Source of the DNA: a virus
Virus record (IMG/VR): IMGVR_UViG_3300021356_000011
Coordinates: 10,606 to 74,605 of that record
Length of the DNA: 64,000 nucleotides
Direction: 5' to 3' (one strand)
Shown: piece after piece, positions 26,903-55,016 of the stretch
Layout: the number at the start of each line of letters is the position of its first letter
Position numbering within the stretch: the stretch's first letter is position 1
Made by a program: the position numbers and the translations under genes
Notes under the pieces: model-generated
Database searches by the model: none
Seen by the model: the letters and a program-made list of their open reading frames with translations, nothing else
What the model was told of the DNA's origin: nothing

Positions 26903-27209
26903 CGAATTCATACGAAGGCATATGCAGATAAACATGCAGAAGCTTGAAGAAGAAGCTAGGAATTTGATTCAGGCACGCTTTTTTATTGAAGCTGTTATCA
27001 GGTGTGGTGGTTGGCTTGAGATACATGACGAACACATTTTGATTTGCGATGACGGTGATAATTCTGTCAGCGATGAAATGATAGAGTCGTTCAAATGTCT
27101 CTGGCCTTATGTACTTTACATCTTTAACGAGCAAGATTTAGAAGAGTATGGCGAGGAAGACGGAAGAGTGGAAACCTTCGACAGTTCAAGAGGCGGTTGG
27201 TCATCTTGA
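26790..27209 (+). CDS. Hypothetical protein
   Basis: Fills the terS-terL gap and overlaps both. Confidence 0.45.
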   Translation: MELQMQPELMIQYLQAGVKVDWMKLRDLQFEVNSQISSEFIRRHMQINMQKLEEEARNLIQARFFIEAVIRCGGWLEIHDEHILICDDGDNSVSDEMIESFKCLWPYVLYIFNEQDLEEYGEEDGRVETFDSSRGGWSS

Positions 27210-28620
27210 GCGTCAATTAGAACGTATGTATTTCACGTTCCAACCTCGACCTGACAAGGTTGAAGAGTGGGACATGCAGACAAGCTTCTACAACTCAAGA
27301 CACAAAGGCATTACGTTTTTACTGGGAGGGAATGGAGCAGGGACAACAACACTGACGCTTGCAAAAGCAGTTAAGTTTCTGCTTCGAGACCAGCCGCCAC
27401 CTCGACCTGCAACTCCATTTTGGATCATCTCGGAAGGTTATCCGATGGTCATGGACGTTGCTTGGAACGAGAAGATGTGCGGGAGGGGAATGTTACCAGA
27501 GGAAGAAGTGCAGTGGGACAAGGTTGATTGGTATAAGCCTAATCAGAACTGGCCCTTTCGTATTCCTCTGAAGCCTTGGCCTGGGCACGATCCAAACAAC
27601 TACTGGGTGATTGAGCTTAAGTCTTATGATCAGGGTCGATCAAAGATGCAGGCTTCATCTATTGGTGGTTTTGTTTTCATTGAGCAATGTCCATTCTCCT
27701 TGATCGAAGAGGTGCTTCGTGGGTGCCGAGACTATAATTTCCCAGGTGCTAAGCTTGCTGAGTTTACTCCTATTGATCCTCATCTATCTCGCCCACTCGA
27801 AGACATGATCAATAACGGTACGCTGCCAGAAGACTGGGCTGTGTACTACTGCAATACAAAGTGTGCTGTAGAGGCAGGTCATGTAGACAAAGCTTGGTTT
27901 GACGAGTTCTTCGGGATGGTTTCCGAAGAGATGCGTGAAGTCAGAATGCGTGGTGCATTCGCAAGCTTTGAAGGTCTCGTTTACCCTACGTTCAATCCCC
28001 GCATCCATACAGATTCTGATCTAATAGACAGCTTCACAGATGGCATGTACCACTATCGTGCAATCGACTGGGGTAGTGGTCCTGAAAATGCTTTTGTTTG
28101 CTTGTGGGCGGCAAAGGATTCTGTGGGAACGTGGTACATTTACGACGAGTATTACAGCACCGATCAGAACATGACCTACATGGATCATGCGGATCGGATT
28201 TACAATAAGCACCCTTGGCCTAACGATGCTTGGCATGGACCTACATACGGTGACCCTGCATCTCCAGGCTTGGCTCGATTGTTTACACAGTCAGGCATTC
28301 CAATTGTGGGTGCTAACAACCAAGTGATTGAGGGTATTGAAACTGTAAGGGTCGCTTTGCAGCTAAACAACGGCGACCCCAAAGTGGTGATCGACAGAGA
28401 TCGATGCCCTAATTTAATTCGTGAACTTCAAACTTATGTCTGGGAGAAAAGTAAAGGAGGCAAGTTCACTAGGAATGCAGCACCAAGACCATTGAAGAGA
28501 GACGATCACTCTTGCGATGCGTTGAGGTATTTACTTCATACGAATAGCAGTGCTGCTGGTAAAGGCTCGGTTACGGGAGGGAAGATCAAGCCTAAGAACC
28601 GCAAGAGGTTCATCAACTAA
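27148..28620 (+). CDS. terL: Terminase large subunit (degenerate ATPase motifs)
   Basis: Q..F..S...LGGNGAGTT, FTP coupling motif, G.F...EGLVY hinge, RNase H-like AIDWG / DPA / DDHSCDALRY. Confidence 0.9.
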   Translation: MARKTEEWKPSTVQEAVGHLERQLERMYFTFQPRPDKVEEWDMQTSFYNSRHKGITFLLGGNGAGTTTLTLAKAVKFLLRDQPPPRPATPFWIISEGYPMVMDVAWNEKMCGRGMLPEEEVQWDKVDWYKPNQNWPFRIPLKPWPGHDPNNYWVIELKSYDQGRSKMQASSIGGFVFIEQCPFSLIEEVLRGCRDYNFPGAKLAEFTPIDPHLSRPLEDMINNGTLPEDWAVYYCNTKCAVEAGHVDKAWFDEFFGMVSEEMREVRMRGAFASFEGLVYPTFNPRIHTDSDLIDSFTDGMYHYRAIDWGSGPENAFVCLWAAKDSVGTWYIYDEYYSTDQNMTYMDHADRIYNKHPWPNDAWHGPTYGDPASPGLARLFTQSGIPIVGANNQVIEGIETVRVALQLNNGDPKVVIDRDRCPNLIRELQTYVWEKSKGGKFTRNAAPRPLKRDDHSCDALRYLLHTNSSAAGKGSVTGGKIKPKNRKRFIN

Positions 28621-31726: not shown

Positions 31727-32197
31727 GTGTATTACTCATACGAAGAAATAACCGCAGAGGACTGGGAAGAGTTTGCTGAGTGGGCATATGCAGAGAACTG
31801 CATTAGCCTGGAAGAGCTAGACAGTCTTCTAGATACCAAGAGGTATCGCTTTAGGGCAGTGCTTCGTTGCCATGAGAATGTCAAAGATAGTGACGACTAC
31901 TGCCTGTTTGTGACCTATAGCAGGAAGAGCAAGGTGATAGAGATTGGATCGTTCTTTACGATTGGTAGATTTTCACCTTCAGCATTTGCTTGCTTGATTA
32001 AGAGCTTCAAAGTTGACGCTCATCGTTACAGCAGAAGAGTTGAAATGGTTGTGTCTGATACAAACTCTCAATGTCACAACCTTCTAAAGAACATGAAGTT
32101 CAAGTCGCAGGCTGTTCGAGTTCCTGAATATGTAGGATCCGATGGCGTAACTAGCGAGCATCTATACAAATTCACCTACATCCCTGAGTCAAAATAG
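31727..32197 (+). CDS. Degenerate GNAT/RimI-like protein
   Basis: C-terminal V.MVVSDTN...H.LLK.M.F resembles GNAT motif B; start set downstream of the terminator. Confidence 0.4.
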   Translation: MYYSYEEITAEDWEEFAEWAYAENCISLEELDSLLDTKRYRFRAVLRCHENVKDSDDYCLFVTYSRKSKVIEIGSFFTIGRFSPSAFACLIKSFKVDAHRYSRRVEMVVSDTNSQCHNLLKNMKFKSQAVRVPEYVGSDGVTSEHLYKFTYIPESK

Positions 32198-32206
32198 GGC
32201 ATCCTT

Positions 32207-35200
32207 ATGTCTATCATCGTCAACGGCAAAGAGTATCCAGACGAGCGTTCGGTCCCAGAGCAGTATCGAATGCAGACCCAGATGGGAACACGGCAGCGAG
32301 ATCCTGGGAACTTCAGCCCAGACCTAGCTCCCAATGTAGGTCGCAGCGTATTACCGCATGTGACTACGTTCTCAGGCATGATGTCTACTCTTGCCAGGAC
32401 TTATCGTCAGCATGACGAGGCGATTAGGCACAATAAGCACAACGCAAATATGATGCGTCGTGACCCTATGATTATGGGTCCACTGTTTGCTCGACAGATG
32501 GCAGTGGCTTTGCTCCAATGGCAAGTGCAGCCAGAGGATAGTAGCGATGAGAAGCAGGTGCAGGTCGCTAAAGAATTGACCTTCATGGTTTCTCGCATTC
32601 CTCGGTTCCGAGAATACCTTCGTAACTTGATGGAAGCAGTTTGGTATGGTCGATATGGCATTCAAAATGTTTGGGGGTTCACTAGGGACAGTCGCGGTGT
32701 TCGTTATCGCACTGTTGTTGATTGGGTTCCCGTCAATGGTGACAAACTTTTGTTTCGTTATGATGATGGGACTGGGCGTTATGACCATGATGAAATTGGC
32801 GTCAAAGTCTCAGTAGCTCATGTCAAAGATGACATCTGGGCTGGTAAGCCTGACATTGAGTGGAACTCTGAAGGAACAGGTGTATTCCTTCGTCGATGGG
32901 AGCGTAGTCGTTTAGTCGTCCATAAGAACTTCATGATGGACGGTGACTACGAGGATCCAACCACCGCAGGCATGATCCATGGTGTTGGTCTTCGACACTT
33001 CTTGTATTGGTCTTGGTATCAGAAACAAGAGACTCTCGCTCAGCTTGCAGAAGTGGTTGAGCGAGCAGGTATGGGTTTCACTGTCTACACTTACCCTGCC
33101 GGTAATGCCCAGGCACGAGAAGAGGTCGAGCGTCTAGCAGAAGAGCAGGCACATAAGAATCAAATCGTGCTTCCAATGGAAGTGTCGAATCCTGATGCCT
33201 ACAGCATTCAACAGATCCCACCAAATACGCAAGGCATCATGGCTTTGCAGTCTTTGATTGATGACTACTTTGGTAGCTGGATCATCAAGTTCATCCTGGG
33301 TCAAACACTATCGTATCGAGCAGAAGCGGGTACGCCAGGAATCTCTGATCTGCATCGCGACAGCTTCTTGCAGATTGTGAAGTACGACAGTCTTGGTGTT
33401 GAAGAGACTGTCACCAAAGATCTGATTCGTATGCTGTTGATGTTCAACTTCCCTTCGTATCAGAACGTCAACTTCCAGTTCAAACTGAACACAGAAGAAG
33501 CAGTGCCATTAGAGAAACTGCAAGCACTGCAAGCTGCCTGGAGTATGGGGGCGAAGATTAAATCTGAAGACGTTATGGGTCTTATCGGATTGAATGTCGC
33601 AGGTGCCACAGATCAAGCTCTCTACAATCCTCAAGTTCTAGCATCACTCAAAGAGTACGAGATGATGGAAGAGCAACAGGAGAAAGAAGAGGAGGGTGGT
33701 CAAGGAACGCAGATCACTGAAAGCCAAGACGAAGCGTTGGCTGCAATGCTTGGTCCTGTCATGCAATCAAAGAGGTACTCCAAATACAGCAATGAAGATA
33801 ATTTTGATGTATTTGACGATGCTGATTTTGAAGGCAGTGCTGATGTTCCAATGCCTTCTACTGTCATGCCAACGGGAGAGCAAACAGAAGATCGCAAAGA
33901 GTTAAGGGATGAGTTTGATCCTAAGTTGGACCAAGTCAAGTCAGACGCCACTTTGCATCCAGAAAAGGAAGAGTTTTTCTCCGAGTCTAAAGTGCGTGAC
34001 AATGATGGCAAGCTGCTAGTTTTGTATCACGGTACTCCGAATGGAAAATTAGTCCAGCATGACAGAAGACTTTCGGGAGATCCAGATTTAGCTTCGCATG
34101 GTCAAGGTTATTATCACACTGACAACTTAGATGCGGCGAAAGATTATGCTCTTAATAGCGACGGAACAGGGGAAGCGAATCCCGCCGTACATGCTGTCCA
34201 TTTAAATATTAAAAATCCTTTTGATGTTAGCAAAGATGAGATTGATTCTAAAGACTTTATTAGTTGGTATAAAGGAACAACTGGGGACGCTGAATCTGCG
34301 AAGAAGATGATGCAAAAAATTGATGAGATGTCATCTAACGCAGGAAAAATTCCTAGTGACTATGAAAGTCTTAAAGCTTTAGGTGGAGGCACTCAAAAAT
34401 ATCTTTCGAGATACTTGAGATCAAAGGGGTTTGATGGATTGAAAGCACAGGGCAGTCATGGGCGTCCTGGTCAGCGTTCGATAGATCACACAATCTACAT
34501 GGCTTTCCACCCAAGTCAGATTAAATCGGTGAGCAATGTAACGCCATCTGGCGATCCAAGGATGGACTATGTCAAGGACGAGTATGCTAAGAAGAGCGAA
34601 AGCGGGAACTACAAGCCAACTAAGGGAATGATTGGCAATGCTAAGAGAGGCTTGGAACTACGCAAGAAGCACGAGAAGGGCGGGACCGCAGTAGGTGTTG
34701 CTCGTGCTAGAGATATTATAAATGGCAAAGACCTTAGCTTCTCTACCGTTAAACGGATGCACTCATTCTTTAGTCGCCATGCTGGGAACGAAGAGGGTGG
34801 TGAGGATGATGCTGGTTACATCGCATGGTTGTTGTGGGGTGGTGACAGTGGACGCAACTGGGCACGCAGTATTGTAGAGTCAGAGCGTAAAAACCAAGCT
34901 GGCGACGTTGACAATGAAGGTGATCCATCAGTCATTGATACGCCAGAGGAAGACCTGACGGAGCCTGCTCCACAAAGAAGAGGTGAGGACAGCCTCTTCG
35001 GTGCCATTGCCTCTGGTGCGATGGAGGGTGCAACTCGTGGTGCTGCTAGAAGACTGACTGGTCAACAGGGATTCCAGTTTGCTAAAGATGAAGATGATGA
35101 TGGTCTTCGCCAGGGCGGTTTGTTTGACGATGTGCCTGTTAAGGATGACTACATCCCCAAGAAGAAAGAGCCTAAAGCACCTAGCAACGAAAGGCAGGGC

Positions 35201-38200
35201 AGGCTTTTCTCTGAGGATGATCTGCACAATCTTCAGCATGATCTTGAACAAAGAAAGATGTTCGAGAAGAAGAATGATCCTGATCGTTACATGATGGATG
35301 AGGATGATCGCAAGGAACTTGAGGAGTATCTAAGTAAACAAGAAGAAGGTGATGCCAAGTTCTCTGATTCTGAAATAGAGATGAGGGAAGATCTTGAGCG
35401 AGATCTTAAGAGATACGCTAGTGTAATGCTTGAGAAGTATGGCGATGATGATGAAGACTATGCTGCTGCAACTTTCTTTCTTAAGAACTTAGATCGTTTT
35501 AAAGATTCAGAAGAGTTGCTTTCTTACATAGAAGAGTTTGGTACTGGATTTGATTACGACGAGATAAAAGATAAATGGGACCGAGGAATCTATCAGATAT
35601 CTGACCTTGGCGACTCTCCAAGTGAATTGATTGAGAAAGCCTTGGTTCATTTTGGTGAGACAGAAAATCCCAAACAGGCAGGGTATATCTTGCCTGATGG
35701 AACTATGCTTAACTTTGGCTCTGATGGAGTTAGGCATGAAGACCATCGCAGTATTGGTGTTGCATATAAGGAGCATCCTCACCCTGGAGATAAAGGGAAT
35801 GACCCAACGGCTTACATGAGCCATTTCATGGATCAGACAGGTGCGATTAGGTGGATGCCTTCAGCACCTGGACTTTCTTTGCATTCTGCTCCAACCAAAG
35901 CTCAGATGGATACGATTAATAGAAGTCTTGAACTTATGGGCTCAGAAGGTGAAGAGTTTTATTGGGACAGGGATGAGCATGACCCTAAAGGTGAAAAGGG
36001 ATATCCGTACAAGACAACGATGACTGGAGACAGTCTCTATTCTCTGCACGACGCTATCAATAGTGATTTTGACGAGGAGTTGATGCAAGAGAATGAGGAT
36101 TACAGCAAAGAACCAGAGCGTAATGCTATGGGTGCTGGTCCTCGTGATCACTCTCCTGAAGACTTTGATGTCACCGGAAAGCAGATCAATGGACAAGCTA
36201 CAGCCAACAGAGGCACAATGCCCAAGCAGGCAACTCAGTCTTCTATGCCATCTAAGGCAGACAAGGGATCTGTATCTACTAATCCAGTAAGCAAAACTGG
36301 AATGTCTTCCGATGCTACTCGCATGGATAGAGGTGCTTCTCTAGCCAACATGCGTGACAAGTTCATGAAGTATCGCAAGACCAAGCTGATTGAGATGCTT
36401 CAGCCATTTGTCCAGGAAGATCCTGACTTCTCGCTGACAGATGCACAGGGCAAGAAGCGTAGGACCAGCCTATTCAAAGCCGACAAGTATTCTCTTGCGA
36501 ACACTCTTGCGAGTAAGTATGCCGAGGGTGAAGACCCTTATGCGAGAACTAAACCGCTTGATAGGCATATCGATGGAGTAATTGAGTCTTACGTTGGTGA
36601 AGGCATGGGTGCTGAAGATAAGAAAGACTTATCAGACAGCCTGTACAACACTTGGCGGGATGTGCATAGTGAACATCAAGCTGACGTAAGTGATTTCAAT
36701 AAAAACTTAAACAGCTTAGCTCAGCAGTTTGGGTACGAAAGAGCAGAGGGTGCTTTTACTCGAAAGGCTAGGAGTGCAGAAGACGTTGATGCCATAAAGC
36801 GTCTAGATGAATCTCAGCAGGATTTAGTTAGAAACACAATTAGCTCTGCCGGGAAGCTTGGCCTTAAGGTTTCAGGAGGCGATGACATTGAGAAGGTCCA
36901 CTCTGCCCTTATGCATGGTCATCAAAAGCCACTTGGAAAAACGCATGATGATATTTGGAAAGAAGTCATACAGCGAGAAAGGCTTGACGAGTTCTCAAAA
37001 GAGCAGAATGAAGAGGAAGAAGTTCCGCCGATCACAGGAGAAGAAGCGGAGTCTTTACTTGAAGGTCAGAGAGCGGCTACTGAGCAACAGCTAGAGGAGT
37101 TTATCGAAGGCCAGGGTGCTGAAAAGCCAACTCCATCAGCAAATGAACCAGATGAGCCATATGGTTTGGAACCTACTGCTGATCCTGAAGTCCCAACTAT
37201 TAGAGTTGAAGGCGAACTTCCTGTGACAGTAGAGGAGAGCCCTTTAACTAAGATCACCGAATCTGCTTTAGGGGCAGAGAATATCAGGTCGTTCATGAGG
37301 GGCATTGGTAAGGATCTGGGAGGCATTAGTGTAGAGCATAAAAGGCAATGGTTGGAAGCTAATGATATAGAGCCAAAGAATATTCAGAGTGAAAAGACTC
37401 TTAACTCAATGATCCGCAAATTCATTCGAGAGAAGGCTGAGTCTAAACCTGAAGAAGAGCCTACTCAGCAAGAGTTGTCATTGCAGCCAACCCCAGAGCC
37501 TGTCAAGCCAATCCAGCCTACGCAGGCACAGCTAGACATGGTTCAAGACTTGATCAAGTCGGAGGAGACTCCTGATAAGCTTCAAGGATTCATTAACGAA
37601 TTGAAGGGTGCTGCTGAGTCAGGTGATGCGAAGTCTCTCAATGACATCTTAGAAGAGCGTGATGAATTTGCTTTTGATAAAACCTTGGTGACTGATCCAG
37701 AGCGTCTTGAGTCTCTCAATGTTTGGATCGACAGTATTGAACAGACTGCCAAGACTGGAGATATGGATGCTGTCAAATCTCTTGCTTCTGGTGAAGAGCC
37801 TGTCAGCATGAGGGCTCTGGATGAAGAGAAGGAAAAGCAGATAGCCCAAGGCCAGCAGGAAAGAGAAAAGCGAGCCGCTCAAGAGAAGCAGGAAGCAACC
37901 TTCCAGCAAAACAGGCAGCGATATTGGGATCAGGTGGGTGAAGAGGAGGGGATGAAGCGGATCCTTGACTTCATCGTATCTGATCAGGCACCTGATAAGC
38001 TTGAGGGATTTGTCAACAAGCTAAAGGAAGCTGCGGATAGTGGAACTACAAGCGACTTAATTTCTGTTTTGGATGAGTGGGAGCAGACGGAAGAGGATAT
38101 TGTTGATCCAGGAGTGAAGCAGGAAGATATCCCCCTGGAACGCAAAAACGATCTCAACGACTGGATAGGTTCTATTGAGGGGCTTGTCAGGTCAGGAGAT

Positions 38201-39298
38201 ATTGAAGCTGCAAAATCTTTCGCTCGTGGGGAGAAGCCAGTTGAGCTTCCAAGGCTAATTAAAGGAATCTCCAAGGAAACAGGTTTGGTTGAGGGCGAAT
38301 TGACTGATGCGGAGAAGCTTGAGCAGCTTAAGCAGGATCAGGAAGAAAGAATAATTCAACGTCGAGCGAAGGCTAGAGCGGCATTTGAAGAGCAGGAAAC
38401 CAAAGAACGCAATCAAACATTAAAAGAGCTTAAGGAAATGGCTTTAGATCAGAAAGCTAAAGCTGAGATGTTTGAAAGCAAAACTCCAGTGACAGCCGAT
38501 GGGGGAAGGGTTAGCGAAAGCACTATTGATGAGTACCATGCCTCAGCATTGCCTCACTTGGACTCCAGCACTGTAGTTAAGATTGGAGTGGCAGGAGAGG
38601 ATAGGGGTGCAATAAGGTTTAGCTCAGATGGTGCTGGAAGCTTTGTAATGGAACATGAGAAGCCTAATGGCGACAAGATCTACTACGATGCTAAGCAAGC
38701 TAAGAAGGCTTTAGGAAAGTCGTTCAATAAGATAGCAGGTCAAGCAATCCTACGAGACAACAAAGCTTGGGCTGGCAAGGCACTAATGGCGGGTCTTGTG
38801 ACTCCAGATGCTGCGTCTAAATTAACTAAACCAGCAAGCCAAACCTACATGACAACTCAGATGAAAGCCAAGATTAATGAGGCAGCGATAACTGCCATGG
38901 CAAATCTTGGAACGTCAAATGGCGGCATCAATCTTGGTGACTATAGCAATACAAGGGATGCTGCTGATGCTGCCTTTGACAAGATGCGTGGTCACATGAA
39001 TGACATCCAAAAGCCTGGAGGGTGGCTGGATACTCTGAAAGGTGCTGGGTTTGCTTACAACGACAAGGCTTCCGTTGCAGACAACTATGTCAACGGAATG
39101 CAGTATGTCATGGAGAAGGCAGGCCAGACAGGTTTTAGAGCCAGCAAGCAGAAGAATGCCGTCGAGAACATGCAGGGTGCAATACAGCATTTGTCTGAGC
39201 AATCTGAAGATGAAAAAGGGTGGAGCCCATGGGCAGTTGCTGGTGGAATCGGCATCTTAGCGGTACTTCTCTTGTTCTACTCGGTAATGAAGGACTAG
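32207..39298 (+). CDS. Portal protein (DUF935/Mu gp29-like) fused to about 1850 aa of polyvalent cargo domains and a C-terminal TM helix
   Basis: N-terminal ~480 aa portal (A.WYG...W, G.GL...LYW.W..K, ILGQTL); ART-like SKVRD..G.LL.LYHGT...NPF...GFDG...QIKSV; GGT.VG.ARA...IAWLLWGG domain; AGYILPDG domain; TM WAVAGGIGILAVLLLFY. Confidence 0.85.
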   Translation: MSIIVNGKEYPDERSVPEQYRMQTQMGTRQRDPGNFSPDLAPNVGRSVLPHVTTFSGMMSTLARTYRQHDEAIRHNKHNANMMRRDPMIMGPLFARQMAVALLQWQVQPEDSSDEKQVQVAKELTFMVSRIPRFREYLRNLMEAVWYGRYGIQNVWGFTRDSRGVRYRTVVDWVPVNGDKLLFRYDDGTGRYDHDEIGVKVSVAHVKDDIWAGKPDIEWNSEGTGVFLRRWERSRLVVHKNFMMDGDYEDPTTAGMIHGVGLRHFLYWSWYQKQETLAQLAEVVERAGMGFTVYTYPAGNAQAREEVERLAEEQAHKNQIVLPMEVSNPDAYSIQQIPPNTQGIMALQSLIDDYFGSWIIKFILGQTLSYRAEAGTPGISDLHRDSFLQIVKYDSLGVEETVTKDLIRMLLMFNFPSYQNVNFQFKLNTEEAVPLEKLQALQAAWSMGAKIKSEDVMGLIGLNVAGATDQALYNPQVLASLKEYEMMEEQQEKEEEGGQGTQITESQDEALAAMLGPVMQSKRYSKYSNEDNFDVFDDADFEGSADVPMPSTVMPTGEQTEDRKELRDEFDPKLDQVKSDATLHPEKEEFFSESKVRDNDGKLLVLYHGTPNGKLVQHDRRLSGDPDLASHGQGYYHTDNLDAAKDYALNSDGTGEANPAVHAVHLNIKNPFDVSKDEIDSKDFISWYKGTTGDAESAKKMMQKIDEMSSNAGKIPSDYESLKALGGGTQKYLSRYLRSKGFDGLKAQGSHGRPGQRSIDHTIYMAFHPSQIKSVSNVTPSGDPRMDYVKDEYAKKSESGNYKPTKGMIGNAKRGLELRKKHEKGGTAVGVARARDIINGKDLSFSTVKRMHSFFSRHAGNEEGGEDDAGYIAWLLWGGDSGRNWARSIVESERKNQAGDVDNEGDPSVIDTPEEDLTEPAPQRRGEDSLFGAIASGAMEGATRGAARRLTGQQGFQFAKDEDDDGLRQGGLFDDVPVKDDYIPKKKEPKAPSNERQGRLFSEDDLHNLQHDLEQRKMFEKKNDPDRYMMDEDDRKELEEYLSKQEEGDAKFSDSEIEMREDLERDLKRYASVMLEKYGDDDEDYAAATFFLKNLDRFKDSEELLSYIEEFGTGFDYDEIKDKWDRGIYQISDLGDSPSELIEKALVHFGETENPKQAGYILPDGTMLNFGSDGVRHEDHRSIGVAYKEHPHPGDKGNDPTAYMSHFMDQTGAIRWMPSAPGLSLHSAPTKAQMDTINRSLELMGSEGEEFYWDRDEHDPKGEKGYPYKTTMTGDSLYSLHDAINSDFDEELMQENEDYSKEPERNAMGAGPRDHSPEDFDVTGKQINGQATANRGTMPKQATQSSMPSKADKGSVSTNPVSKTGMSSDATRMDRGASLANMRDKFMKYRKTKLIEMLQPFVQEDPDFSLTDAQGKKRRTSLFKADKYSLANTLASKYAEGEDPYARTKPLDRHIDGVIESYVGEGMGAEDKKDLSDSLYNTWRDVHSEHQADVSDFNKNLNSLAQQFGYERAEGAFTRKARSAEDVDAIKRLDESQQDLVRNTISSAGKLGLKVSGGDDIEKVHSALMHGHQKPLGKTHDDIWKEVIQRERLDEFSKEQNEEEEVPPITGEEAESLLEGQRAATEQQLEEFIEGQGAEKPTPSANEPDEPYGLEPTADPEVPTIRVEGELPVTVEESPLTKITESALGAENIRSFMRGIGKDLGGISVEHKRQWLEANDIEPKNIQSEKTLNSMIRKFIREKAESKPEEEPTQQELSLQPTPEPVKPIQPTQAQLDMVQDLIKSEETPDKLQGFINELKGAAESGDAKSLNDILEERDEFAFDKTLVTDPERLESLNVWIDSIEQTAKTGDMDAVKSLASGEEPVSMRALDEEKEKQIAQGQQEREKRAAQEKQEATFQQNRQRYWDQVGEEEGMKRILDFIVSDQAPDKLEGFVNKLKEAADSGTTSDLISVLDEWEQTEEDIVDPGVKQEDIPLERKNDLNDWIGSIEGLVRSGDIEAAKSFARGEKPVELPRLIKGISKETGLVEGELTDAEKLEQLKQDQEERIIQRRAKARAAFEEQETKERNQTLKELKEMALDQKAKAEMFESKTPVTADGGRVSESTIDEYHASALPHLDSSTVVKIGVAGEDRGAIRFSSDGAGSFVMEHEKPNGDKIYYDAKQAKKALGKSFNKIAGQAILRDNKAWAGKALMAGLVTPDAASKLTKPASQTYMTTQMKAKINEAAITAMANLGTSNGGINLGDYSNTRDAADAAFDKMRGHMNDIQKPGGWLDTLKGAGFAYNDKASVADNYVNGMQYVMEKAGQTGFRASKQKNAVENMQGAIQHLSEQSEDEKGWSPWAVAGGIGILAVLLLFYSVMKD

Positions 39299-39301
39299 GT
39301 A

Positions 39302-39658
39302 ATGGATGACCTATGGCAACCTACATCTGGCTTGTTGATAGCTGTGGTCACTGCGGCTACAGCCTGGATTAATCACAAGTTGAAAGATCTGGATCGTCAG
39401 GTCAACAACAAGGGTAAGCATGGACGCAAAGAGTCGCTTTATGAGCTAGTCCATAAGAATGATATAATTGCCGAGCAACAGCTTGGCATGCTTAATATGA
39501 TCGATGAAAAGCTAGGTCATACAGACGAACTATGTCGCAAGACATCAGAAGAACTTGAGGGACTGCTGGAGTCCAGAAAGAGTGACTGGGATGTCATTCA
39601 TCAGAAGTTTGACCATTTAGAAAACCGTATCGACGTTATAGAGAAGCGTCTCCCTTAA
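39302..39658 (+). CDS. Small membrane-anchored coiled-coil protein
   Basis: N-terminal TM segment, then coiled coil. Confidence 0.6.
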   Translation: MDDLWQPTSGLLIAVVTAATAWINHKLKDLDRQVNNKGKHGRKESLYELVHKNDIIAEQQLGMLNMIDEKLGHTDELCRKTSEELEGLLESRKSDWDVIHQKFDHLENRIDVIEKRLP

Positions 39659-39670: not shown

Positions 39671-40039
39671 ATGTCAACGATTGATCGAGCGTATTTCAAA
39701 AAGGTAGATGCTACCATCACCAGCGGTACTGATTACTCAGATGCGATTGATTTCCAAGGAGCGTCAGCAGGTTGTCTTGTCGCTGCCTCTGGATTTGGTA
39801 ACGCAAGTGTTACCATCGAGTGGAATGGCAATGCTAAGACAGATAAGCCTGACAACTCTGACACATGGTACGCATTGAAAGATCCAGACAATGCTGCTGT
39901 TGCTGCTGCCACAGTCAACGCTACCACGGCTGACTACATGGAATTACCTGCTACAGCATTCGGTAAGCCATGGTTGCGAATCAAGCTTGGTGGTAATGCT
40001 GCTGCGACGAAAACAATCAATGTTCACGCCGTTGGCTAA
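39671..40039 (+). CDS. Small beta-rich virion protein
   Basis: AAGGAAGG RBS; T.S.AID...W..L...P....WLRI pattern. Confidence 0.55.
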   Translation: MSTIDRAYFKKVDATITSGTDYSDAIDFQGASAGCLVAASGFGNASVTIEWNGNAKTDKPDNSDTWYALKDPDNAAVAAATVNATTADYMELPATAFGKPWLRIKLGGNAAATKTINVHAVG

Positions 40040-40048
40040 GGTTGAGAC

Positions 40049-40891
40049 ATGGCATATCCAAACGACCCACCTGCCCCAAGCGGGATGACACTTACTGGCA
40101 ATAGCCTGAACAATGGCTGTGTCCTATTCTACCCAATGACAGAAGGTTCGGGGTCTGTAATTGAGGACATTAGCGGCAACGGCTATGACGCGACTGGTTT
40201 GGCTAGCTTTGTGCCAACTTGGGCTACTGAGACGAAGGGTACAGTGGCTGAGTTTGTCGGTGGTCAAAGATATATGGTTCCACAGGCATGGTGGAACGAT
40301 AACATTTCCGGCGGCACAGATTTGTCTATGTCGTGCTGGGTCAAAATGGACCCAGTTCTTCAGTCGAGTTTTAACGGCACCGCTGTGGGGCTGATGCACT
40401 ACGATTCCGGCGGAAATAAATTTTTGATCGAGGCTAGTCGACCGTATTCGTATTGCCAATTAATTTTCGGTCAACCGGCGTTTCAGCAAATGGGTGTTCT
40501 GGGTCGGTTTTATGCAGATACGTGGTATCACGTTGTTTTTACTTCATCCAATGGCGGCGAGATGCGTGTTTATTTTGATGGTGCTATATCTACTCGCGCA
40601 TACTCACAGGGAGATTTTTTAGCGAAAACCGCAGGCACCTATACCAACATCACTGCTGACTCAGCCATTGGTGCTAGTGCCTACACTCTTGACGACCGAA
40701 GACACTTTGAAGGCTACCAGCAGAATATCAGGCTCTGGAATCGGGTGTTGACGCCAACAGAGGTGCAGACCCTTTATGATGATCCTTGGGCAGGAACCGA
40801 CTACTCGCCCAACGAAGTATCAGGCGGATCTGCTTTGTCAGCAGCACATCTAGCAAACGCTATTCGTTTACAACCCAACTACAAACGATAA
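40049..40891 (+). CDS. LamG/concanavalin-like jelly-roll protein
   Basis: YPMTEGSG...DISGNG, S.WVK, WYHVV.T, YFDG, IRLWNRVL. Confidence 0.85.
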   Translation: MAYPNDPPAPSGMTLTGNSLNNGCVLFYPMTEGSGSVIEDISGNGYDATGLASFVPTWATETKGTVAEFVGGQRYMVPQAWWNDNISGGTDLSMSCWVKMDPVLQSSFNGTAVGLMHYDSGGNKFLIEASRPYSYCQLIFGQPAFQQMGVLGRFYADTWYHVVFTSSNGGEMRVYFDGAISTRAYSQGDFLAKTAGTYTNITADSAIGASAYTLDDRRHFEGYQQNIRLWNRVLTPTEVQTLYDDPWAGTDYSPNEVSGGSALSAAHLANAIRLQPNYKR

Positions 40892-40902
40892 GGAAATAAA
40901 CC

Positions 40903-41208
40903 ATGGGTAATCTATCAAACTTTGAATCAACTGAAATTGGTCAAGCTCGTATGAATCGCTTGCGAGCAATGGGCAACAAGGTTGTCAGCCTCGTGAACAG
41001 CTTGTACGCATCTGCCGTGGAATACAACAACTACCGAGTGGAACTCGATCCGGTCGAAGATGCAGAAGACATCGCCTATTCCGATACAGCATTTGTCTAC
41101 ACCGCCGATCAAGCCAAGCCAATTCTGGACAACCTAGCTCCAGAAGAGAAGGCGTGGTTGGATGCGATGCTTGATGCTCTGGGTTATCAACCTAAGCCTG
41201 CTGAGTAG
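40903..41208 (+). CDS. Hypothetical protein
   Basis: AAGGA RBS; followed by a terminator. Confidence 0.6.
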   Translation: MGNLSNFESTEIGQARMNRLRAMGNKVVSLVNSLYASAVEYNNYRVELDPVEDAEDIAYSDTAFVYTADQAKPILDNLAPEEKAWLDAMLDALGYQPKPAE

Positions 41209-41216
41209 TGAAATCT

Positions 41217-41242
41217 GGGTGGGCTACCACCCGCCCTTTTTT
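41217..41242 (+). terminator. Intrinsic terminator
   Basis: GGGTGGG-6 nt-CCCGCCC followed by T6. Confidence 0.65.
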
Positions 41243-41255
41243 CTTGAGGTGATTC

Positions 41256-42605
41256 GTGACGACTCCGAGCGGCAACATTATCTTCAATAACGCAGGTGGT
41301 TTAGACACTGCTGCCAGTGGTCTTGGACCTGCAACGGCTGAGACTGGTGCTGGTGCGTCCACTGACGGGACGGCAGTTGTGACCGGCATTACAACCACTG
41401 GAGTATCGGCTGGTGATTTACTTTGGGTGCAGACTGCAAGCGGTCGTCAGTTCTCCATCATCGCCAGCGTCGATAGTGGTACGCAGGTAACTTGCGACGA
41501 TACATTTGTGCTTGGTTCTGGTCAGACTTGGGCTATCGGTGGACAGCGAAAGACCATTGGGAACACTAATAGTCAACTGATGTTCGCAGACGCTCACGAC
41601 GATTGGACGATTGAACTGGAAGACGATCAGAGCATTAGTGCTGCGATTACTTGGAGTGGTGGAGATGATTCAGAACGCGGATTCCGATTAATTGGGACGG
41701 CTGGCTCTATTAAGTCCATCACGCAAACTGCCAGCAGCACAGCACACTTTTCCCTGTCTGGTGCCTCGTGTAATTTTAACAACATCAAGTTTCTCAATTC
41801 AGCAGTAACCCAAGAGGTTGCAGTGCTTGGTGGGTCTGGGGCTAATGAGGCTAGGTTTCATGATTGCATTTGCGGCGAAGGGAGCGGAGGAAACAACCCA
41901 TCTGGATTTTGCAGGCGTGGAACTAGTGGTCTTTCCATGACTTTTTTCAACTGCATCGCAGACCATTGCACAGATGTGGGGTTTGGGTCAACTAACACTC
42001 GTGGGTATATTGTCGCAAGGAACTGCAAAGCTATAGGCTGCACAAGCCATGGTTTTGCAACTCGTGGAGACGGCGATGTAATGATGCACAACTGCATCTC
42101 TGATTCAAATGGCGGCGATGGTGTAAATGCAGGCGCAACCGAAACTGGTTCGGTATTCATTACAAACTGCGTCTTTAGAAACAATACAGGCGACGGCTTT
42201 GGTACTGAAAAAGACGATGTACATTTCAGTTCTGCATCTATTGTAAATTGTCAAATTACAGAAAATGGTGCCTATGGCATTAGTTGGCCTAATTGGATTG
42301 GCAATCCAGAAATGGCGTTTTTCGACGGCAACAACTTTGGCACTGGTGCAACAGCAAACACATCAGGCGACTACCAAGGCGTGACAGGTGGATCACGAGA
42401 CACTGCCGTCGATCCAGCTTACGCCGACACGGCTAACGGCGATTACACACCGGGAACAACGGAACAACTAACCGCTGGATATCCTGAGTTTACAATTGAC
42501 ACAACATCTGTCTCATCCAACCAGCCGATTGGTGTGGTTGGTGGCAGTGCAACAGGCGGCGGTGCAACACTCGCATCTGACGCTCGCATCGAGAGGCTGA
42601 AGTAA
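41256..42605 (+). CDS. Right-handed beta-helix (pectate-lyase-like) virion appendage protein
   Basis: Repeating NC....N...G units; DP.Y.D..NGDY. Confidence 0.8.
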   Translation: MTTPSGNIIFNNAGGLDTAASGLGPATAETGAGASTDGTAVVTGITTTGVSAGDLLWVQTASGRQFSIIASVDSGTQVTCDDTFVLGSGQTWAIGGQRKTIGNTNSQLMFADAHDDWTIELEDDQSISAAITWSGGDDSERGFRLIGTAGSIKSITQTASSTAHFSLSGASCNFNNIKFLNSAVTQEVAVLGGSGANEARFHDCICGEGSGGNNPSGFCRRGTSGLSMTFFNCIADHCTDVGFGSTNTRGYIVARNCKAIGCTSHGFATRGDGDVMMHNCISDSNGGDGVNAGATETGSVFITNCVFRNNTGDGFGTEKDDVHFSSASIVNCQITENGAYGISWPNWIGNPEMAFFDGNNFGTGATANTSGDYQGVTGGSRDTAVDPAYADTANGDYTPGTTEQLTAGYPEFTIDTTSVSSNQPIGVVGGSATGGGATLASDARIERLK

Positions 42606-43822
42606 TGGCTAATCGGTATTGGGTCAACGGCGGTTCAACAAACAACTGGTCAGATACGTCCAACTGGTCTACCACTAGCGGTGGTACTGGCGGTGCTTCT
42701 GTTCCCGGTGTTTCCGACGATGCAATATTTGACACAAACTCTGCGAGCTACAACTGCACGCTTGACCAGAATGTCAATGTCAACTCATGGACGTATCCTA
42801 CCTCTGCCTATGGCGGAACCATTGATTGCGTCACTTATGATGTGACAACCGCTGGAAATTTGTGGGGGCGATCCGGTGCTACTCTGTATATGGGAACAGG
42901 CACGTTTAACGTCGGTGGAAGTTTCAGTTGTCGTGACGGCAATTTATATGGGCAGACAGCTACATTAAGGTTTACAACCCTCAGCGGTGCCTTGAGCCTT
43001 TCAAATGCCCAGCAAGACACTGGGCCAAATTTAGAAGTTGCTAGTGGTGCGAGATGCATATATACGTTTACCGGGAAACAAGATGTCAAAAGTTTCGATT
43101 GTTATGGTGAATTTTATTTTGGCGGTGGTGGGGGCTTAGAGGTATTTGGCGATGTTACTATTCGTTCTACAGGATCGCTTACAAATACTACTAGTAGGTA
43201 CATCAGAATCCAGACGACAAGTAACCCCGTTTGTACCCTAGAAGCAGGTGCTTCCGTTGGGGACACTGCTTTTACTACATATAGATCAAACCCCTCTTCG
43301 ACTGCATCCCTCACTTTTGCTGGAGCAGGGTGGGCGACTGCAACAGGTGTAAGCCTTCAGTTAAATTACCTAACAACCGTAAATGGCAGATGGACTTATG
43401 TTTTTCCGGCGGCTATGCACGTTAAAGAAGTACGACTTGAGCCAAGGTATAGCAGTTCTCGAACGACCCTCGATTTTTCAACAAACAGCACGCAGCTTAC
43501 TGTCGAGACACACTTTCGAGATGTTTCAGCCCACGGCACAGATACCTACAACATAAACGTGGGCAGTTCAAAGCTGACCTTCAATCTCTCTTCTAATAGC
43601 ACGTTCTCGCCTAGAGGAAATACATTTCCACCAATCATAATCGCGGATGATGCTGTTGGGACTCTGACGCTAGATAGCAACTTAACCACTGAGTATGTGC
43701 ATGACTGTAACAGTATGATTGACCTGAATGGTTTCACGATTACTGAGACAGGCACAGACCCGGTTGGTTGTATCACCCCTGACGTTTTCTACCTCCTAGA
43801 CGAAGCTTTTAAGAGATTGTAA
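42605..43822 (+). CDS. Beta-helical adhesin-like virion protein
   Basis: RYWV.GG..NWSDTSNWS..SGG.GGASVP...DDAIFD N-terminal motif; Thr/Gly-rich. Confidence 0.75.
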   Translation: MANRYWVNGGSTNNWSDTSNWSTTSGGTGGASVPGVSDDAIFDTNSASYNCTLDQNVNVNSWTYPTSAYGGTIDCVTYDVTTAGNLWGRSGATLYMGTGTFNVGGSFSCRDGNLYGQTATLRFTTLSGALSLSNAQQDTGPNLEVASGARCIYTFTGKQDVKSFDCYGEFYFGGGGGLEVFGDVTIRSTGSLTNTTSRYIRIQTTSNPVCTLEAGASVGDTAFTTYRSNPSSTASLTFAGAGWATATGVSLQLNYLTTVNGRWTYVFPAAMHVKEVRLEPRYSSSRTTLDFSTNSTQLTVETHFRDVSAHGTDTYNINVGSSKLTFNLSSNSTFSPRGNTFPPIIIADDAVGTLTLDSNLTTEYVHDCNSMIDLNGFTITETGTDPVGCITPDVFYLLDEAFKRL

Positions 43823-46759
43823 ATGAGCTACCCTAACAACCCACCAGTCCCAGCGAGTATCACCGTCGATGCCACTGCGTCGATTAACAGTGGGTTGGTG
43901 GGGTTCTGGCCCTTGACGGATGGAACTAGTACGAATGCAACAGACCTGTCAACGGGTGGTAATGACGGGACGCTTGTGAGTACTGCTGCGTGGGTTAGTT
44001 CCACCAAGGGTTCGGCTGTAGAACTAGATGCCACTGGTGAATATGTAGACACAAATTTAAGTGGTTCCTATGACATCAGAAGCCAAGAACTATCAATCTC
44101 AGGGTGGGTTAAATGTGGTACGGAAACGCACACGCAGAGATTCGTTTCAGCTAGAGGTGGAACGACAGGTGCAGGCAGTGAGTATCCACTCGACCTCTGG
44201 ACTGTGGCTACGACAGGGAAATGCCGTGTCGCTGCCTACGATGGGACTAGCTCTATCAATGCGGATTCAACCACAACTATTGGGGATGACAATTGGCATC
44301 ATATCTGTGGTGTTGCTGATGCCACAAACCTTTATATCTACGTTGACGGCGTACTAGAAAACCAGGTGGCTATTTCGGGGCTATCTAGTTCGAGTGCTGG
44401 GGCCAATGATTTTTATATTGGTCAGACACAGGCTGCAACTGACTCAACGAGGCAGCTTCTTGGCGAGATCCAAAACGTCAGAATCTACAACCGAGCCCTA
44501 ACCGCCACCGAAGTCGCAGAACTCTATTCTGTACCGTGGACAGGCACCGACTACGTAGCCCAGAACCTAACGCCCGACACGCCAATCGCCATGGGTGTAG
44601 ATCCTAATCACAGCCTGTCGTCTGGCCTCGTAGGATACTGGCCTTTGTCTGAGGGCAGTGGGACGGTAGCGAAGGACTTAACGGGGACCGCAGACCTAAC
44701 ATCAACAAACCCTAACTGGGGCGAATCTAGTATTGGTACAGTTGGTGTTTTTCCTAACTCATCAACCGCATCGTTTATCGCATCGTCGTATGTCCCCGTT
44801 TCCGGGGCAGGCGAGTTGTCGGTGAGTGCTTGGTTTAAAACGACATCCGGTGGCGCTGGCAACATTGTGACATGGGGGACATCTGCCGCGGGGCAAGTGT
44901 TTGAGCTTAATGTTGAGGGTGGAGTGCTTTGGTCACGAAATCATAGTGGCAATACCGTATCTGGAGGGAGTGGTTTAAATGACGGAGAATGGCATGTCGT
45001 AACCTGGACGAAACCAGGAAACGGTACAACATCAGACATAAAAATGTTTGTTGACGGGAAACAGTTATCCGTAACGGCAGGTGGGAGTACCACACTCAGT
45101 TTTGGAACATCGTCACCGCTGGAAATAGGAGACAGAGGGTACAGTTCTAGTAAATCGTTTGATGGTGAAATTCAAAATGTTCGTGCCTATAACCGAGTCT
45201 TATCAGCTACCGAAGTAGAAGCCCTCTATAACGAGCCCTGGGCAGGCGTAGTGACAGCGAAGTCAGCACCACCGCAGTATCTCACAGTTGACACCGCAGA
45301 TAGTATCAACACAGGATTACAGGGCTTCTGGCCCTTGTCTGACAACGATACGACGGCTGTAGATTTGAGCGGGAATGGGAATGACGGGACTGAAAGTGGT
45401 GGCGTTACGTGGTCAGCTGATGATAAGGGACTGAGTGCTAGTTTTGATGGGGTAGATGATAGGTTTGTTCTGAGTAATGGACTTTCGCGTAATCAAACCG
45501 CGATGACTATTTCTGCTTGGGTTAAGCCAGATGTCGTTAGCACTAACACGATGGTTTATTATGAGTCGAATAACACAGGAACCCAATTCACTCGTATAAA
45601 CCTTGTGGTGAACAGCGGAAGTGTTCAAACTGGTGGTCGTGACGACGATGGCGATAGCTTTACGACGTTTGCGCAGTCTAACACAGGTATTGTTGCAACC
45701 AATATTTGGCAGCATCTAGTCGCGGTGGTTGATCCAACTGGTGGTGGGTGCAAGGTGTATTTAGACGGGGAGAATGTAACTAATACATCTAACAACACTG
45801 GAGACGGGTTCCCAGACACTGACCCTTTGTACTATGCGATTGGTTCACACTCATCAAATTCGTACACTTTCGATGGCAATATCCAAAACGTCAGAGTCTA
45901 TAACCGAGCCCTGTCAGCGGCAGAGGTATCCCGCCTCTACCAAGATCCTTGGGCAGGCACTGACCGAGCGATTGAACCATCACCCACGGCTAAAGACCTC
46001 GACACATCCAGCAGCCTGACAACCAACCTCGTTGGCTGGTGGCCTCTCACTGAGTATGGGCCACAGGATACGCTGGCTTATGATATCAGTGGCAATGACT
46101 ACCACGGCGTAGCTAATGGTGGTGTGCAACGGCAGTTTACTGATACGGTACGGGCTGCGAACCTTGATGGGGTGGATGATAGGTTTGACCTGTCAACGCT
46201 TGGGGATTACGAAGCACACTCAAACCCGTTGACAGTCAGTATGTGGTGTTACCTGCGGGACGACTCCCTGCAACAGTATTGGTTCAACAAGGCAGACTCA
46301 GACGCCATGTTCTTTGCATGGACAAACGTCAATGGAAGTTTGGAATTTAAGATTCGGGATCTGACCGTTGTGAACGCCACGGGCAAGATGTACAGCGGAT
46401 TAGCTACTAACATTCTCAACCGATGGGCTCATTTGGTTTTTGTATCTTCGGGGACCGATTACACGCTTGCCTCCAACCTTGATGTCTATTTGGACGGTGT
46501 GGTTCAGACTGCGACCTCGTCAACTAATGGCGACGGGTACACAAGCGGAGAGTCTTCCGTAGGAATGCTTACGCTAGGCGGTAGGTATTATGACAACAAC
46601 CGTAATATGGATGCAATGTTCCAAAACGTCAGAGTCTACAGTCGAGCCTTATCAGCCGCAGAAGTTCAAACACTGTATGATGATCCTTGGGTCGGATTGG
46701 CTACCGACAGTTTAGTTTACGCATATTACTCCGCTGCCTTCTTGCAGCGTTTAGGCTAA
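43823..46759 (+). CDS. Protein with four tandem LamG-like domains
   Basis: Four repeats of LVG.WPL...DLSG...W.H...Y.DG...QNVR.YNRAL.A.EV..LY..PW.G. Confidence 0.9.
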   Translation: MSYPNNPPVPASITVDATASINSGLVGFWPLTDGTSTNATDLSTGGNDGTLVSTAAWVSSTKGSAVELDATGEYVDTNLSGSYDIRSQELSISGWVKCGTETHTQRFVSARGGTTGAGSEYPLDLWTVATTGKCRVAAYDGTSSINADSTTTIGDDNWHHICGVADATNLYIYVDGVLENQVAISGLSSSSAGANDFYIGQTQAATDSTRQLLGEIQNVRIYNRALTATEVAELYSVPWTGTDYVAQNLTPDTPIAMGVDPNHSLSSGLVGYWPLSEGSGTVAKDLTGTADLTSTNPNWGESSIGTVGVFPNSSTASFIASSYVPVSGAGELSVSAWFKTTSGGAGNIVTWGTSAAGQVFELNVEGGVLWSRNHSGNTVSGGSGLNDGEWHVVTWTKPGNGTTSDIKMFVDGKQLSVTAGGSTTLSFGTSSPLEIGDRGYSSSKSFDGEIQNVRAYNRVLSATEVEALYNEPWAGVVTAKSAPPQYLTVDTADSINTGLQGFWPLSDNDTTAVDLSGNGNDGTESGGVTWSADDKGLSASFDGVDDRFVLSNGLSRNQTAMTISAWVKPDVVSTNTMVYYESNNTGTQFTRINLVVNSGSVQTGGRDDDGDSFTTFAQSNTGIVATNIWQHLVAVVDPTGGGCKVYLDGENVTNTSNNTGDGFPDTDPLYYAIGSHSSNSYTFDGNIQNVRVYNRALSAAEVSRLYQDPWAGTDRAIEPSPTAKDLDTSSSLTTNLVGWWPLTEYGPQDTLAYDISGNDYHGVANGGVQRQFTDTVRAANLDGVDDRFDLSTLGDYEAHSNPLTVSMWCYLRDDSLQQYWFNKADSDAMFFAWTNVNGSLEFKIRDLTVVNATGKMYSGLATNILNRWAHLVFVSSGTDYTLASNLDVYLDGVVQTATSSTNGDGYTSGESSVGMLTLGGRYYDNNRNMDAMFQNVRVYSRALSAAEVQTLYDDPWVGLATDSLVYAYYSAAFLQRLG

Positions 46760-46771
46760 GGAGAAATAACA

Positions 46772-48890: not shown

Positions 48891-48965
48891 CATTGCCTGA
48901 TTCGTCGCTAAATGAAGATGACTGTATAATTTTCAACTAAATTTCGCTTTCATGGATGATTGCAT

Positions 48966-52850: not shown

Positions 52851-52891
52851 ACGGGGCCTTGTAGGTCTAGCCACAACTAAGGAGATACACG

Positions 52892-53290: not shown

Positions 53291-53329
53291 TTTCCATGGA
53301 TGAACATTTGAGAAACGGAGTTTAATAAC

Positions 53330-54376: not shown

Positions 54377-54410
54377 TCGTTTTCGCATCACTTCCCCTCT
54401 CGGTGGTGCA

Positions 54411-54443
54411 GGCTGGGGCGGTAGCTCCGCCCCGGCCCTTTTT
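54411..54443 (+). terminator. Intrinsic terminator after MCP
   Basis: GGCTGGGGCGG-TAGCT-CCGCCCCGGCC followed by a T run. Confidence 0.8.
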
Positions 54444-55015: not shown

Positions 55016-55016
55016 T

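Follow-up and report, generated by a model that had tools for sequence, protein, structure and literature searches.

In phage T4, cargo such as Alt and the internal proteins is trimmed by the protease gp21, which cuts their capsid-targeting sequences at L/I-x-E, and is then ejected. In herpesviruses, assemblin precursors hold a release (R) site past the protease domain and a maturation (M) site near the C-terminus of the scaffold, and the positions of these two sites are the basis of the likeness drawn below. A polyvalent protein of 2,811 amino acids (aa) has been detected by proteomics in virions of phi24B. Fusions of portal, MuF and protease proteins to effector domains have been read as packaged and injected (PMC5512222, PMC9503650), and the portal of Mu, gp29, whose C-terminal crown faces the capsid interior, is found in the virion without its C-terminal 124 residues, a loss attributed by the authors to protease I (PMC11915804). 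Here, a single open frame of 2,363 codons is described at positions 32207-39298 (+ strand) of the window, which denotes the whole stretch of 64,000 nucleotides analysed (positions 10,606 to 74,605 of the 74.6-kb IMG/VR virus contig IMGVR_UViG_3300021356_000011, G+C ~47%). A Mu-type portal and ~1,840 residues of further modules share this one open reading frame (ORF), and the modules are swapped as cassettes between close relatives at exchange points that bear [YF]-[SA]-K. The product is proposed, with a probability of roughly 0.55 for the whole chain of inference, to be a portal-anchored polyvalent (multi-effector) protein, encoded by an uncultured marine tailed phage, that is packaged and cut at Y-[SA]-K.

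Several described systems share parts of this arrangement. As in the polyvalent proteins of the Iyer papers (PMC5512222, PMC9503650), several unrelated effector-type domains lie in one polypeptide among head genes and the ADP-ribosyltransferase (ART) is of the H-Y-D (ART-PolyVal) clade, and portal fusion was taken there as a sign of packaging and injection. The portal fusions of those papers mostly hold one domain (PBECR, 2H, InPase or Nudix), whereas the extension described here holds at least five modules along its ~1,840 residues. Autoprocessing by a zincin domain was proposed in those papers, which name no junction motif; here there is no such peptidase, and the motif matches that of a head protease-scaffold protein. 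Mu gp29 belongs to the same family (PF06074) and loses its C-terminal part (PMC11915804), but the 124-residue piece removed is without a known enzyme module, and the protease described below has no Pfam-detectable similarity. In the T4/phiKZ scheme (PMC5512222, PMC10052503), enzymes including an ART are likewise loaded in the prohead, the protease has an assemblin fold and a three-residue motif is dense in the scaffold core; head proteins of phiKZ and SPN3US are cut at S/A/G-x-E (PMC10052503). T4 differs in using separate cargo proteins with a short N-terminal targeting peptide, whereas here the chain hangs from the portal and the candidate motif ends in Lys, not Glu. The herpesvirus assemblin precursor resembles the protease-scaffold protein of this phage in carrying protease and then scaffold in one chain, with a motif past the protease domain and again tens of residues before the C-terminus. 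The motif itself is a different one, and ~800 residues of extra domains here separate protease from scaffold. In the MuF-fused polymorphic toxins of temperate phages (Jamet et al. 2017, PMC5576092), variable C-terminal effector cassettes also sit on a conserved head-internal carrier, but that carrier is MuF rather than the portal, and no MuF was found in this phage or ten relatives.

Portal-fused effectors (ART, Nudix, 2H, PBECR, InPase), ART-portal associations and assemblin-containing polyvalent proteins are already known (PMC5512222, PMC9503650). What appears to be new is the scale and cassette behaviour of the portal chain, the Tyr-[SA]-Lys junction motif together with its link to a large family of protease-scaffold proteins found neither in Pfam nor in cultured phages, the wide occurrence of module B as a head-internal domain, and a recurrent C-terminal membrane helix. 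Literature searches found no paper describing these four features. The chain is laid out as follows; AF2 stands for AlphaFold2.

32207-33706, + strand, aa 1-500: Mu-type portal module (PF06074 at aa 81-457, E 8e-41; phrog_113)
33665-33784, + strand: acidic linker, conserved GPVM-QSK element and site 1 (RYSK, aa 523-526), from an alignment of 40 relatives and homology breakpoints
33998-34540, + strand, aa 598-778: ART-PolyVal ADP-ribosyltransferase module (PF18760, E 1e-16)
34583-34591, + strand, aa 793-795: site 2, YAK (12 breakpoints at aa 784-793)
34592-34921, + strand, aa 796-905: module B, a helical domain (phrog_2859; AF2 model)
35078-35086, + strand, aa 958-960: site 3, FAK (breakpoints at aa 959-962)
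35087-36100, + strand, aa 961-1298: module C, an acidic region and the AGYILPDG..EDHR domain (aa ~1100-1298; jackhmmer)
36101-36109, + strand, aa 1299-1301: site 4, YSK (11 breakpoints at aa 1298-1302)
36110-36991, + strand, aa 1302-1595: module D (jackhmmer; breakpoints at aa 1441-1448 and 1590)
36992-37000, + strand, aa 1596-1598: site 5, FSK, the weakest site (two breakpoints only, at aa 1590)
37541-38257, + strand: internal duplication, aa 1779-1871 and 1919-2017 (BLASTP, 41% identity over 102 aa, E 7e-22)
38513-39220, + strand, aa 2103-2338: conserved C-terminal module G (jackhmmer; breakpoint cluster at aa 2103-2109)
39221-39292, + strand, aa 2339-2362: C-terminal hydrophobic (transmembrane-like) helix (Kyte-Doolittle mean 2.29)

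The portal reads on into a multi-module chain

The portal domain was matched by PF06074 (DUF935) at 140.9 bits against a gathering cut-off of 23.9, with profile positions 6-331 of 336 covered, and by phrog_113, in agreement with the ~480-aa DUF935-type portal named in the initial annotation of this DNA. The gene adjoins that of the large terminase and lies upstream of protease and scaffold genes, the context of a Mu-type portal. Searching PDB sequences with the whole protein returned only a weak portal match, 8rka. The claim that this portal reads on in frame as a 2,363-aa chain was upheld by the open ORF and by Logan contigs of two runs from two studies, in which positions 32000-39500 were covered with 0 differences, insertions or deletions and no stop or frameshift followed the portal domain; at most one of the runs is independent, because either may be the source sample. 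In both runs, which are of marine origin, the portal-to-ART junction (nt 33785) was contained within single unitigs.

The architecture was not confined to this phage. A search limited to proteins of 1,299-4,136 aa in ENA, JGI, NCBI and Logan assemblies recovered 110 other giant proteins that begin with the same portal (27-100% identity), which together with the phage's own chain, P0001, makes 111 giants. InPase, LPD1, SNF2 helicase, methyltransferase, ParB, sigma-70, Nudix and ART domains were found in the extensions of these relatives. Since the 110 giants come from separate assemblies, the architecture is not an artefact.

The first module past the portal was assigned to PF18760 with a score of 62 bits (gathering cut-off 31.2), and the ART-like domain that had been placed at ~33970-34560 was thereby recognized as a member of a named family. 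Its His (YHGT), Tyr (GYYHT) and Asp (FDG) aligned with the YHGT, GFYF and YDG of eight family members. An H-Y-D active site with His on strand 1, Tyr on strand 2 and Asp on strand 5 defines the ART-PolyVal / Tox-ART-HYD2 clade (PMC5512222); the residues here were placed by alignment, and the strand assignment is as defined there. The chain, encoded within a head module, holds this ART and at least three further discrete modules, in line with the definition of a phage-type polyvalent protein by Iyer and colleagues (two or more unrelated effector-type domains in a polypeptide encoded with the virion genes of a terminase-portal phage); an activity is predicted for the ART only.

Exchange points carry the [YF][SA]K motif

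The motif occurs in the chain at YSK 524, YAK 793, FAK 958, YSK 1299 and FSK 1596. BLASTP comparison with the 24 closest relatives gave 91 internal alignment ends, the largest clusters of which lay at aa 523-533 (16 breakpoints), 784-793, 959-962 and 1298-1302, and a minor one at 1590. Each of the five motif sites fell within a breakpoint cluster, an outcome reached by five random sites in ~5 of 10,000 trials (P about 5e-4). The portal and usually module G were retained in close relatives and the middle was shuffled, so that the expectation of variable cargo between conserved parts in the portals of relatives was borne out. Module G was kept in 13 close relatives whatever the middle cargo.

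The association extended to the wider family. Among the 111 giants, 70 of the 112 non-redundant Y[SA]K sites (62%) lay at most 6 residues from a homology break, compared with 59 of 324 (18%) for the control [LI][SAD]K (controls 18-23%, background 24.5%; Fisher P 1e-17). The recurrence of [YF][SA]K at domain junctions, as first noted for this chain alone, was confirmed as a mark of module boundaries across the family; it did not hold at every junction, some of which are motif-less.

At site 1, the alignment of 40 relatives showed a variable linker, then a conserved GP[IV][LM]-x-[SA]-K, and total divergence beyond. A GPVM-QSK-RYSK-type element was found in 43 of the 111 giants. Plain portals of relatives measure 484-553 aa and stop ~20 residues past the domain, and site 1 is predicted to be the mature portal end. 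The junction at site 3 reads YAK or YDK in relatives.

A probable protease-scaffold family with the same motif

The 1,296-aa protein encoded at 48960-52850, downstream of the portal chain, has the following parts.

48960-49409, + strand, aa 1-150: putative assemblin-fold prohead protease domain (AF2 model and fold matches)
49419-49430, + strand, aa 154-157: VYSK at the end of the protease domain, in an R-site-like position (GLvYSK conserved family-wide)
51807-52847, + strand, aa 950-1296: acidic/coiled-coil, scaffold-like C-terminal part (seven [YF][SA]K sites, one of them KYSK, ~40 aa before the C-terminus)

Its first 175 residues had 1,176 representative homologues, in which the domain was mostly N-terminal in proteins of 400-650 aa. 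The AF2 model of the protease domain (predicted local distance difference test, pLDDT, 86) was ordered to ~aa 150, with pLDDT below 50 from aa 151. The top three matches among 48,161 chains were T4 gp21 (Z 8.6, 127 residues aligned, root-mean-square deviation 4.1), the varicella-zoster virus protease (Z 7.1) and the human cytomegalovirus protease (Z 5.5); Foldseek alone did not identify the fold (E 0.3). H30, N51, D59, H67, R120, S122 and E124 were invariant in 47 sequences of the family. From the fold matches and the invariant His67 and Ser122, the domain is read as an assemblin-fold capsid maturation protease with these two residues probably forming the catalytic pair; their spacing is presumably similar to that of His and Ser in gp21. 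The domain and 47 diverse relatives matched nothing in Pfam or PHROGs and hence no curated family (S78, S80, Mu I), and tblastn of the domain against 50,697 phage records gave no match, so that no cultured phage among them carries it.

The motif was far more abundant here than in the portal chain. In the 1,296-aa protein, [YF][SA]K was counted nine times where 1.27 are expected (P 8e-6), and 150 family representatives of at most 50% identity hold 412 [YF][SAD]K against 79 expected. When all tripeptides of the scaffold halves were ranked without bias, YAK came first (162 vs 14.5) and YSK second (94 vs 6.5), followed by RYS, YSR, RYQ and YQK, and Arg or Lys preceded Tyr in 45% of sites. Written as Y[ASQ][KR], the motif was enriched ~10-fold in protease-scaffold proteins, 2.2-2.3-fold in portal extensions and 1.4-fold in other ORFs.

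Two motif positions were fixed in the family: GLvYSK, in the disordered stretch right past the protease domain, and S-x-KY[AS]KAA, 20-60 residues from the C-terminus in 74 of the 150 representatives. The C-terminal parts are coiled-coil and acidic across the family, which suggests that they are scaffold-like, and the two fixed positions follow the layout of assemblin precursors, as would suit a protease that releases itself and takes its scaffold apart.

The 1,296-aa protein has an insertion of ~800 residues separating protease and scaffold, with L5 gp82-like (aa 340-433), DUF5824 (aa 500-597) and phrog_3170 (aa 720-869) segments, and YSK, YDK, YAK and YAE sites lie between these inserted modules. 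As family members typically measure 400-650 aa, this protein represents a second cargo polyprotein in the same phage.

Proposed packaging and processing of the chain

In portals, Mu gp29 among them, the C-terminus is established to face the capsid interior, and on that ground one chain per portal subunit would lie inside the procapsid, each of the 12 subunits drawing in one copy. The twelve extensions, estimated at ~2.5 MDa in total, would take up a few per cent of the space inside a capsid with ~60 kb of DNA. The assemblin-fold protease of the 1,296-aa protein would then cut at or next to Y-[SA]-K. Such cuts would free a ~526-aa portal, the size of the plain portals of relatives, would separate the ART and modules B, C and D from one another, and would dismantle the scaffold. 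The last 767 residues, which have no strict site, would stay one piece ending in the membrane-type helix. The released proteins would remain in the head and exit with the DNA, and the ART would act on host targets early in infection. The loading of about 12 copies of each cargo by the portal and their release by the prohead protease, as put forward in the initial annotation, are partly supported.

If the motif is the cut site, it would provide a testable rule for how many uncultured phages load, portion and renew injected enzymes, would make mature virion proteins predictable from sequence alone, and would flag module B and similar domains as head-internal proteins. The protease-scaffold family would likewise represent an abundant head-protease family missed by current profile libraries. 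A broader proposal is offered as speculation and is less likely than not to hold: that a large, uncultured, Pfam-less lineage of assemblin-fold proteases reads Y-[ASQ]-[KR] as one code for exchangeable cargo polyproteins on whichever protein points into the procapsid (portal, protease or scaffold), that injected enzymes are swapped by recombination at the cut sites with the assembly machinery untouched, and that the C-terminal helix is the leading end entering the host membrane.

A number of observations weigh against processing at Y-[SA]-K. The fold match of the protease is middling (Z 8.6). The five sites of the portal chain compare with 1.57 expected from composition (Poisson P 0.02), a count that is weak alone, and the sites were picked post hoc; the rest of the window proteome, minus the two large proteins, holds 11 against about 8; the enrichment over the proteome anticipated in the initial annotation was present, with five of five sites at breakpoints, and modest when taken by itself. 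More distant portal extensions show a 2.2-fold enrichment of Y[ASQ][KR] only, and in the portal extensions of 80 protease-anchored loci the motif was observed 17 times against 10 expected, a weak excess. [DE]EY[AS]KK precedes module B in every relative, irrespective of the upstream module, and because it always accompanies module B, EYAKK may belong to the module as its N-terminus and be no free linker. Ahead of module D, some relatives have DYSK or [DE]YDK at the junction, and others KDKM or VQE; for instance, KDKM is followed by QPERN in relatives where DYSK is followed by EPERN in this chain. Across the variant branches at the nt 34580 junction, ~39 nt of DNA are nearly identical, which also suits a recombination joint. 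A transmembrane helix inside a capsid also counts against it. Lastly, over its ends the contig combines two related phages, and the pairing of this portal with this copy of the protease rests on synteny.

The near-identity over 39 nt, the invariable attachment of EYAKK to module B and the motif-less junctions would all be accommodated by a chain that is packaged but stays tethered to the portal, with Y-[SA]-K serving as a linker, a cap or a microhomology joint for cassette recombination and its abundance in the scaffold reflecting a binding or assembly repeat. N4 vRNAP and phi24B gp47 are examples of virion proteins of very large size for which no cutting into modules is known. This is the most serious competitor, yet a doubtful one: protein-level conservation of the motif extends over 150 representatives at most 50% identical, where DNA microhomology cannot persist, and its two fixed positions mirror the self-processing sites of assemblin-type proteases. 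Moreover, the C-terminus of the Mu portal is removed, and twelve tethered 200-kDa chains at the portal crown would lie in the path of DNA entry and exit. Under the proposed processing, the junction stretch may serve both cleavage and recombination.

Cargo modules and the C-terminal helix

Module B, pointed out beforehand as a GGT.VG.ARA/IAWLLWGG domain, proved to be a discrete and widespread unit (phrog_2859) with 314 stand-alone homologues of 64-207 aa and an AF2 model of five helices (pLDDT 88). It matched no solved structure by Foldseek or VIA-align (best Z 4.7), nor any PDB sequence by profile search. A reading of its GGTxVGxARA as a helix-hairpin-helix was dropped, as nothing supported it. 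In BFVD, at 30-50% identity, the module was fused to prohead proteases, XkdF, Mu-type and other portals, capsid fragments, Dps, ParB and HAD domains; one such fusion is to the Halorubrum tailed virus 4 portal. In Vibrio phage 1.247.A it forms the N-terminal part of a coiled-coil protein that lies between MuF and capsid, and in Roseobacter phage CRP-811 that of an 816-aa protein annotated as capsid. The trait common to its fusion partners is that they face the procapsid interior. Occurring alone (about 100-130 aa) or in fusions, module B looks like a marker of head-internal proteins.

Module C was recovered by jackhmmer in P0005, P0263, P0101 and the separate 2,258-aa cargo ORF of loci L076/L077, and nothing in Pfam, PHROGs or the PDB matched it; when stand-alone relatives of its AGYILPDG domain were sought with a word index, one Tara fragment only was found. 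The AGYILPDG...EDHR domain picked out at the start therefore stands as a module that recurs in a few cargo proteins and matches no named family. The first half of module D is common to 19 relatives, and the module matched no named family in Pfam or PHROGs. The internal duplication and the transmembrane tail noted at first were likewise confirmed. Pfam and PHROG matches for the unnamed segments (DUF2274, DUF3835, PUS7L_N, Ntox47, phrog_24919) were discarded as sub-threshold noise, and ESM Atlas results for aa 1100-1300 and module G were uninformative, all scoring <0.9 (Prok-JAB in 13% of one cluster; CobN).

By eye, a hydrophobic helix with basic residues ends roughly 40 of the 111 giants, although only 14 giants reach the threshold of 1.8. 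The pattern of a hydrophobic helix followed by Arg or Lys was seen at the C-termini of many giants (P0002-P0062) with unrelated cargo, for example ..NLYILAGALALLWFIRNRSRR. The helix may serve as a membrane tether in assembly or as the leading end on ejection.

The recurrence of this helix and basic tail, and a module G that stays constant beside a variable middle, would fit an extension that acts as a portal-linked scaffold or membrane tether, nucleating procapsids at the inner membrane by way of the C-terminal helix and then being degraded and expelled from the head as a scaffold is, with hardly any of it entering the host. Acidic, low-complexity sequence makes up much of the chain, as in scaffolds, the motif is common to chain and scaffold, and in cultured phages module B frequently has a scaffold-like fusion partner. 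Such a role is nevertheless unlikely, as an ART with an intact H-Y-D site has no part in assembly, and helicases, methyltransferases, ParB, sigma factors and Nudix domains occupy the same position in relatives. Conflict genes typically show such turnover of cassettes among near-identical phages, and relatives with plain portals assemble without any extension.

Variant branches in the assembly graphs

In both runs the assembly graph is broken at nt 34580 (aa 792), where an alternative branch of about half the depth has ..AKDTLGVEPD on its upstream side, from the module found ahead of module B in relative P0010. This branch indicates that cassette variants coexist in one sample and diverge exactly at the motif. 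Minor branches or loose ends were seen at window positions 34580, 35894 and 37552 (aa 792, 1230 and 1783); those at aa 792 and 1230 match homology breakpoints against relatives, as cassette variants within one population would.

That the 2,363-aa ORF is an assembly chimera of co-occurring variants, its exact module order existing in no phage, could be argued from these breaks and loose ends, from the course of the whole contig through two related phages and from the single membership of the P0001 cluster, but is highly improbable given the equal depth on either side of the break at nt 34580 (19.8 vs 20.6 and 19.9 vs 20.2) with the alternative at about half, the same path with 0 differences in two runs of two studies (though one may be the source), the collinearity of P0003 and P0005 over aa 1298-2363 and 959-2363, respectively, and an architecture that would stand even with a wrong module order, more than 100 relatives being alike.

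Organization of the head module and location of cargo

The portal chain lies in a head module with TerL upstream at 27148-28620 and, on its 3' side, a LamG and beta-helix block, the 1,296-aa ORF, a phrog_673 scaffold-like gene and a 348-aa ORF at 53330-54376. The 348-aa ORF matched no family in Pfam or PHROGs, and its position suggests a capsid protein. The order portal, protease-scaffold, ~350-aa ORF was also found in relatives, and in protease-anchored relatives the portal upstream of the protease gene measured 484 to 2,716 aa. A ~9-9.7-kb block of LamG, beta-helix and fibre-like genes (window 39671-48400) separates portal from protease here. Because portal and protease are much closer in relatives (~0.1-0.5 kb, or one or two ORFs between), this block represents an insertion into the head module.

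Over its first ~13.9 kb (contig 1-13900), the contig was syntenic with its own last ~15 kb (window 48701-64000), contig 10606-13900 corresponding to window 1-3295. Protease-scaffold, capsid and tail genes of the two ends were 21-92% identical in amino acids, and the first 803 nt were 89% identical. As the ends are syntenic but divergent, the contig spans more than one genome length through two related phages, with a unit of ~59.3 kb. The second protease-scaffold copy on the contig is 939 aa long, carries different inserted modules and belongs to the same family as the first.

At E ≤ 1, MuF (PF04233) was matched neither in the 74.6-kb record nor in ten related ones, of which five are 97-100% complete. 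The remark in the initial annotation that no separate MuF gene is apparent was accurate for the record; it is uninformative as to whether the portal has taken over the role of MuF, because MuF is missing lineage-wide and the MuF-free relatives include phages with plain portals that are 97-100% complete. A tie between the absence of MuF and portal cargo was ruled out on the same ground.

Fusion of cargo to the portal is optional, since some relatives carry the cargo as a separate giant ORF. In locus L076 (3-8860), a separate 2,258-aa cargo ORF directly follows the portal with a TGATG stop/start overlap, and locus L023 (198-9621) is similar. The cargo ORF of L076 opens with a W-D-E-x-x-HPR-x3-G-x-F tag. 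No HPR-x3-G-x-F tag was found in the clade of the phage described here (P0001-P0025), apart from an unrelated HPR in P0016. Among the distant giants (P0026-P0111), an HPR-x3-G-x-[FW] tag was present in 39 of 86, and 59% of the non-redundant HPR sites lay at homology breaks. In these distant giants, [YF]-x-[KRA] often occurred 5-35 residues upstream of the HPR tag.

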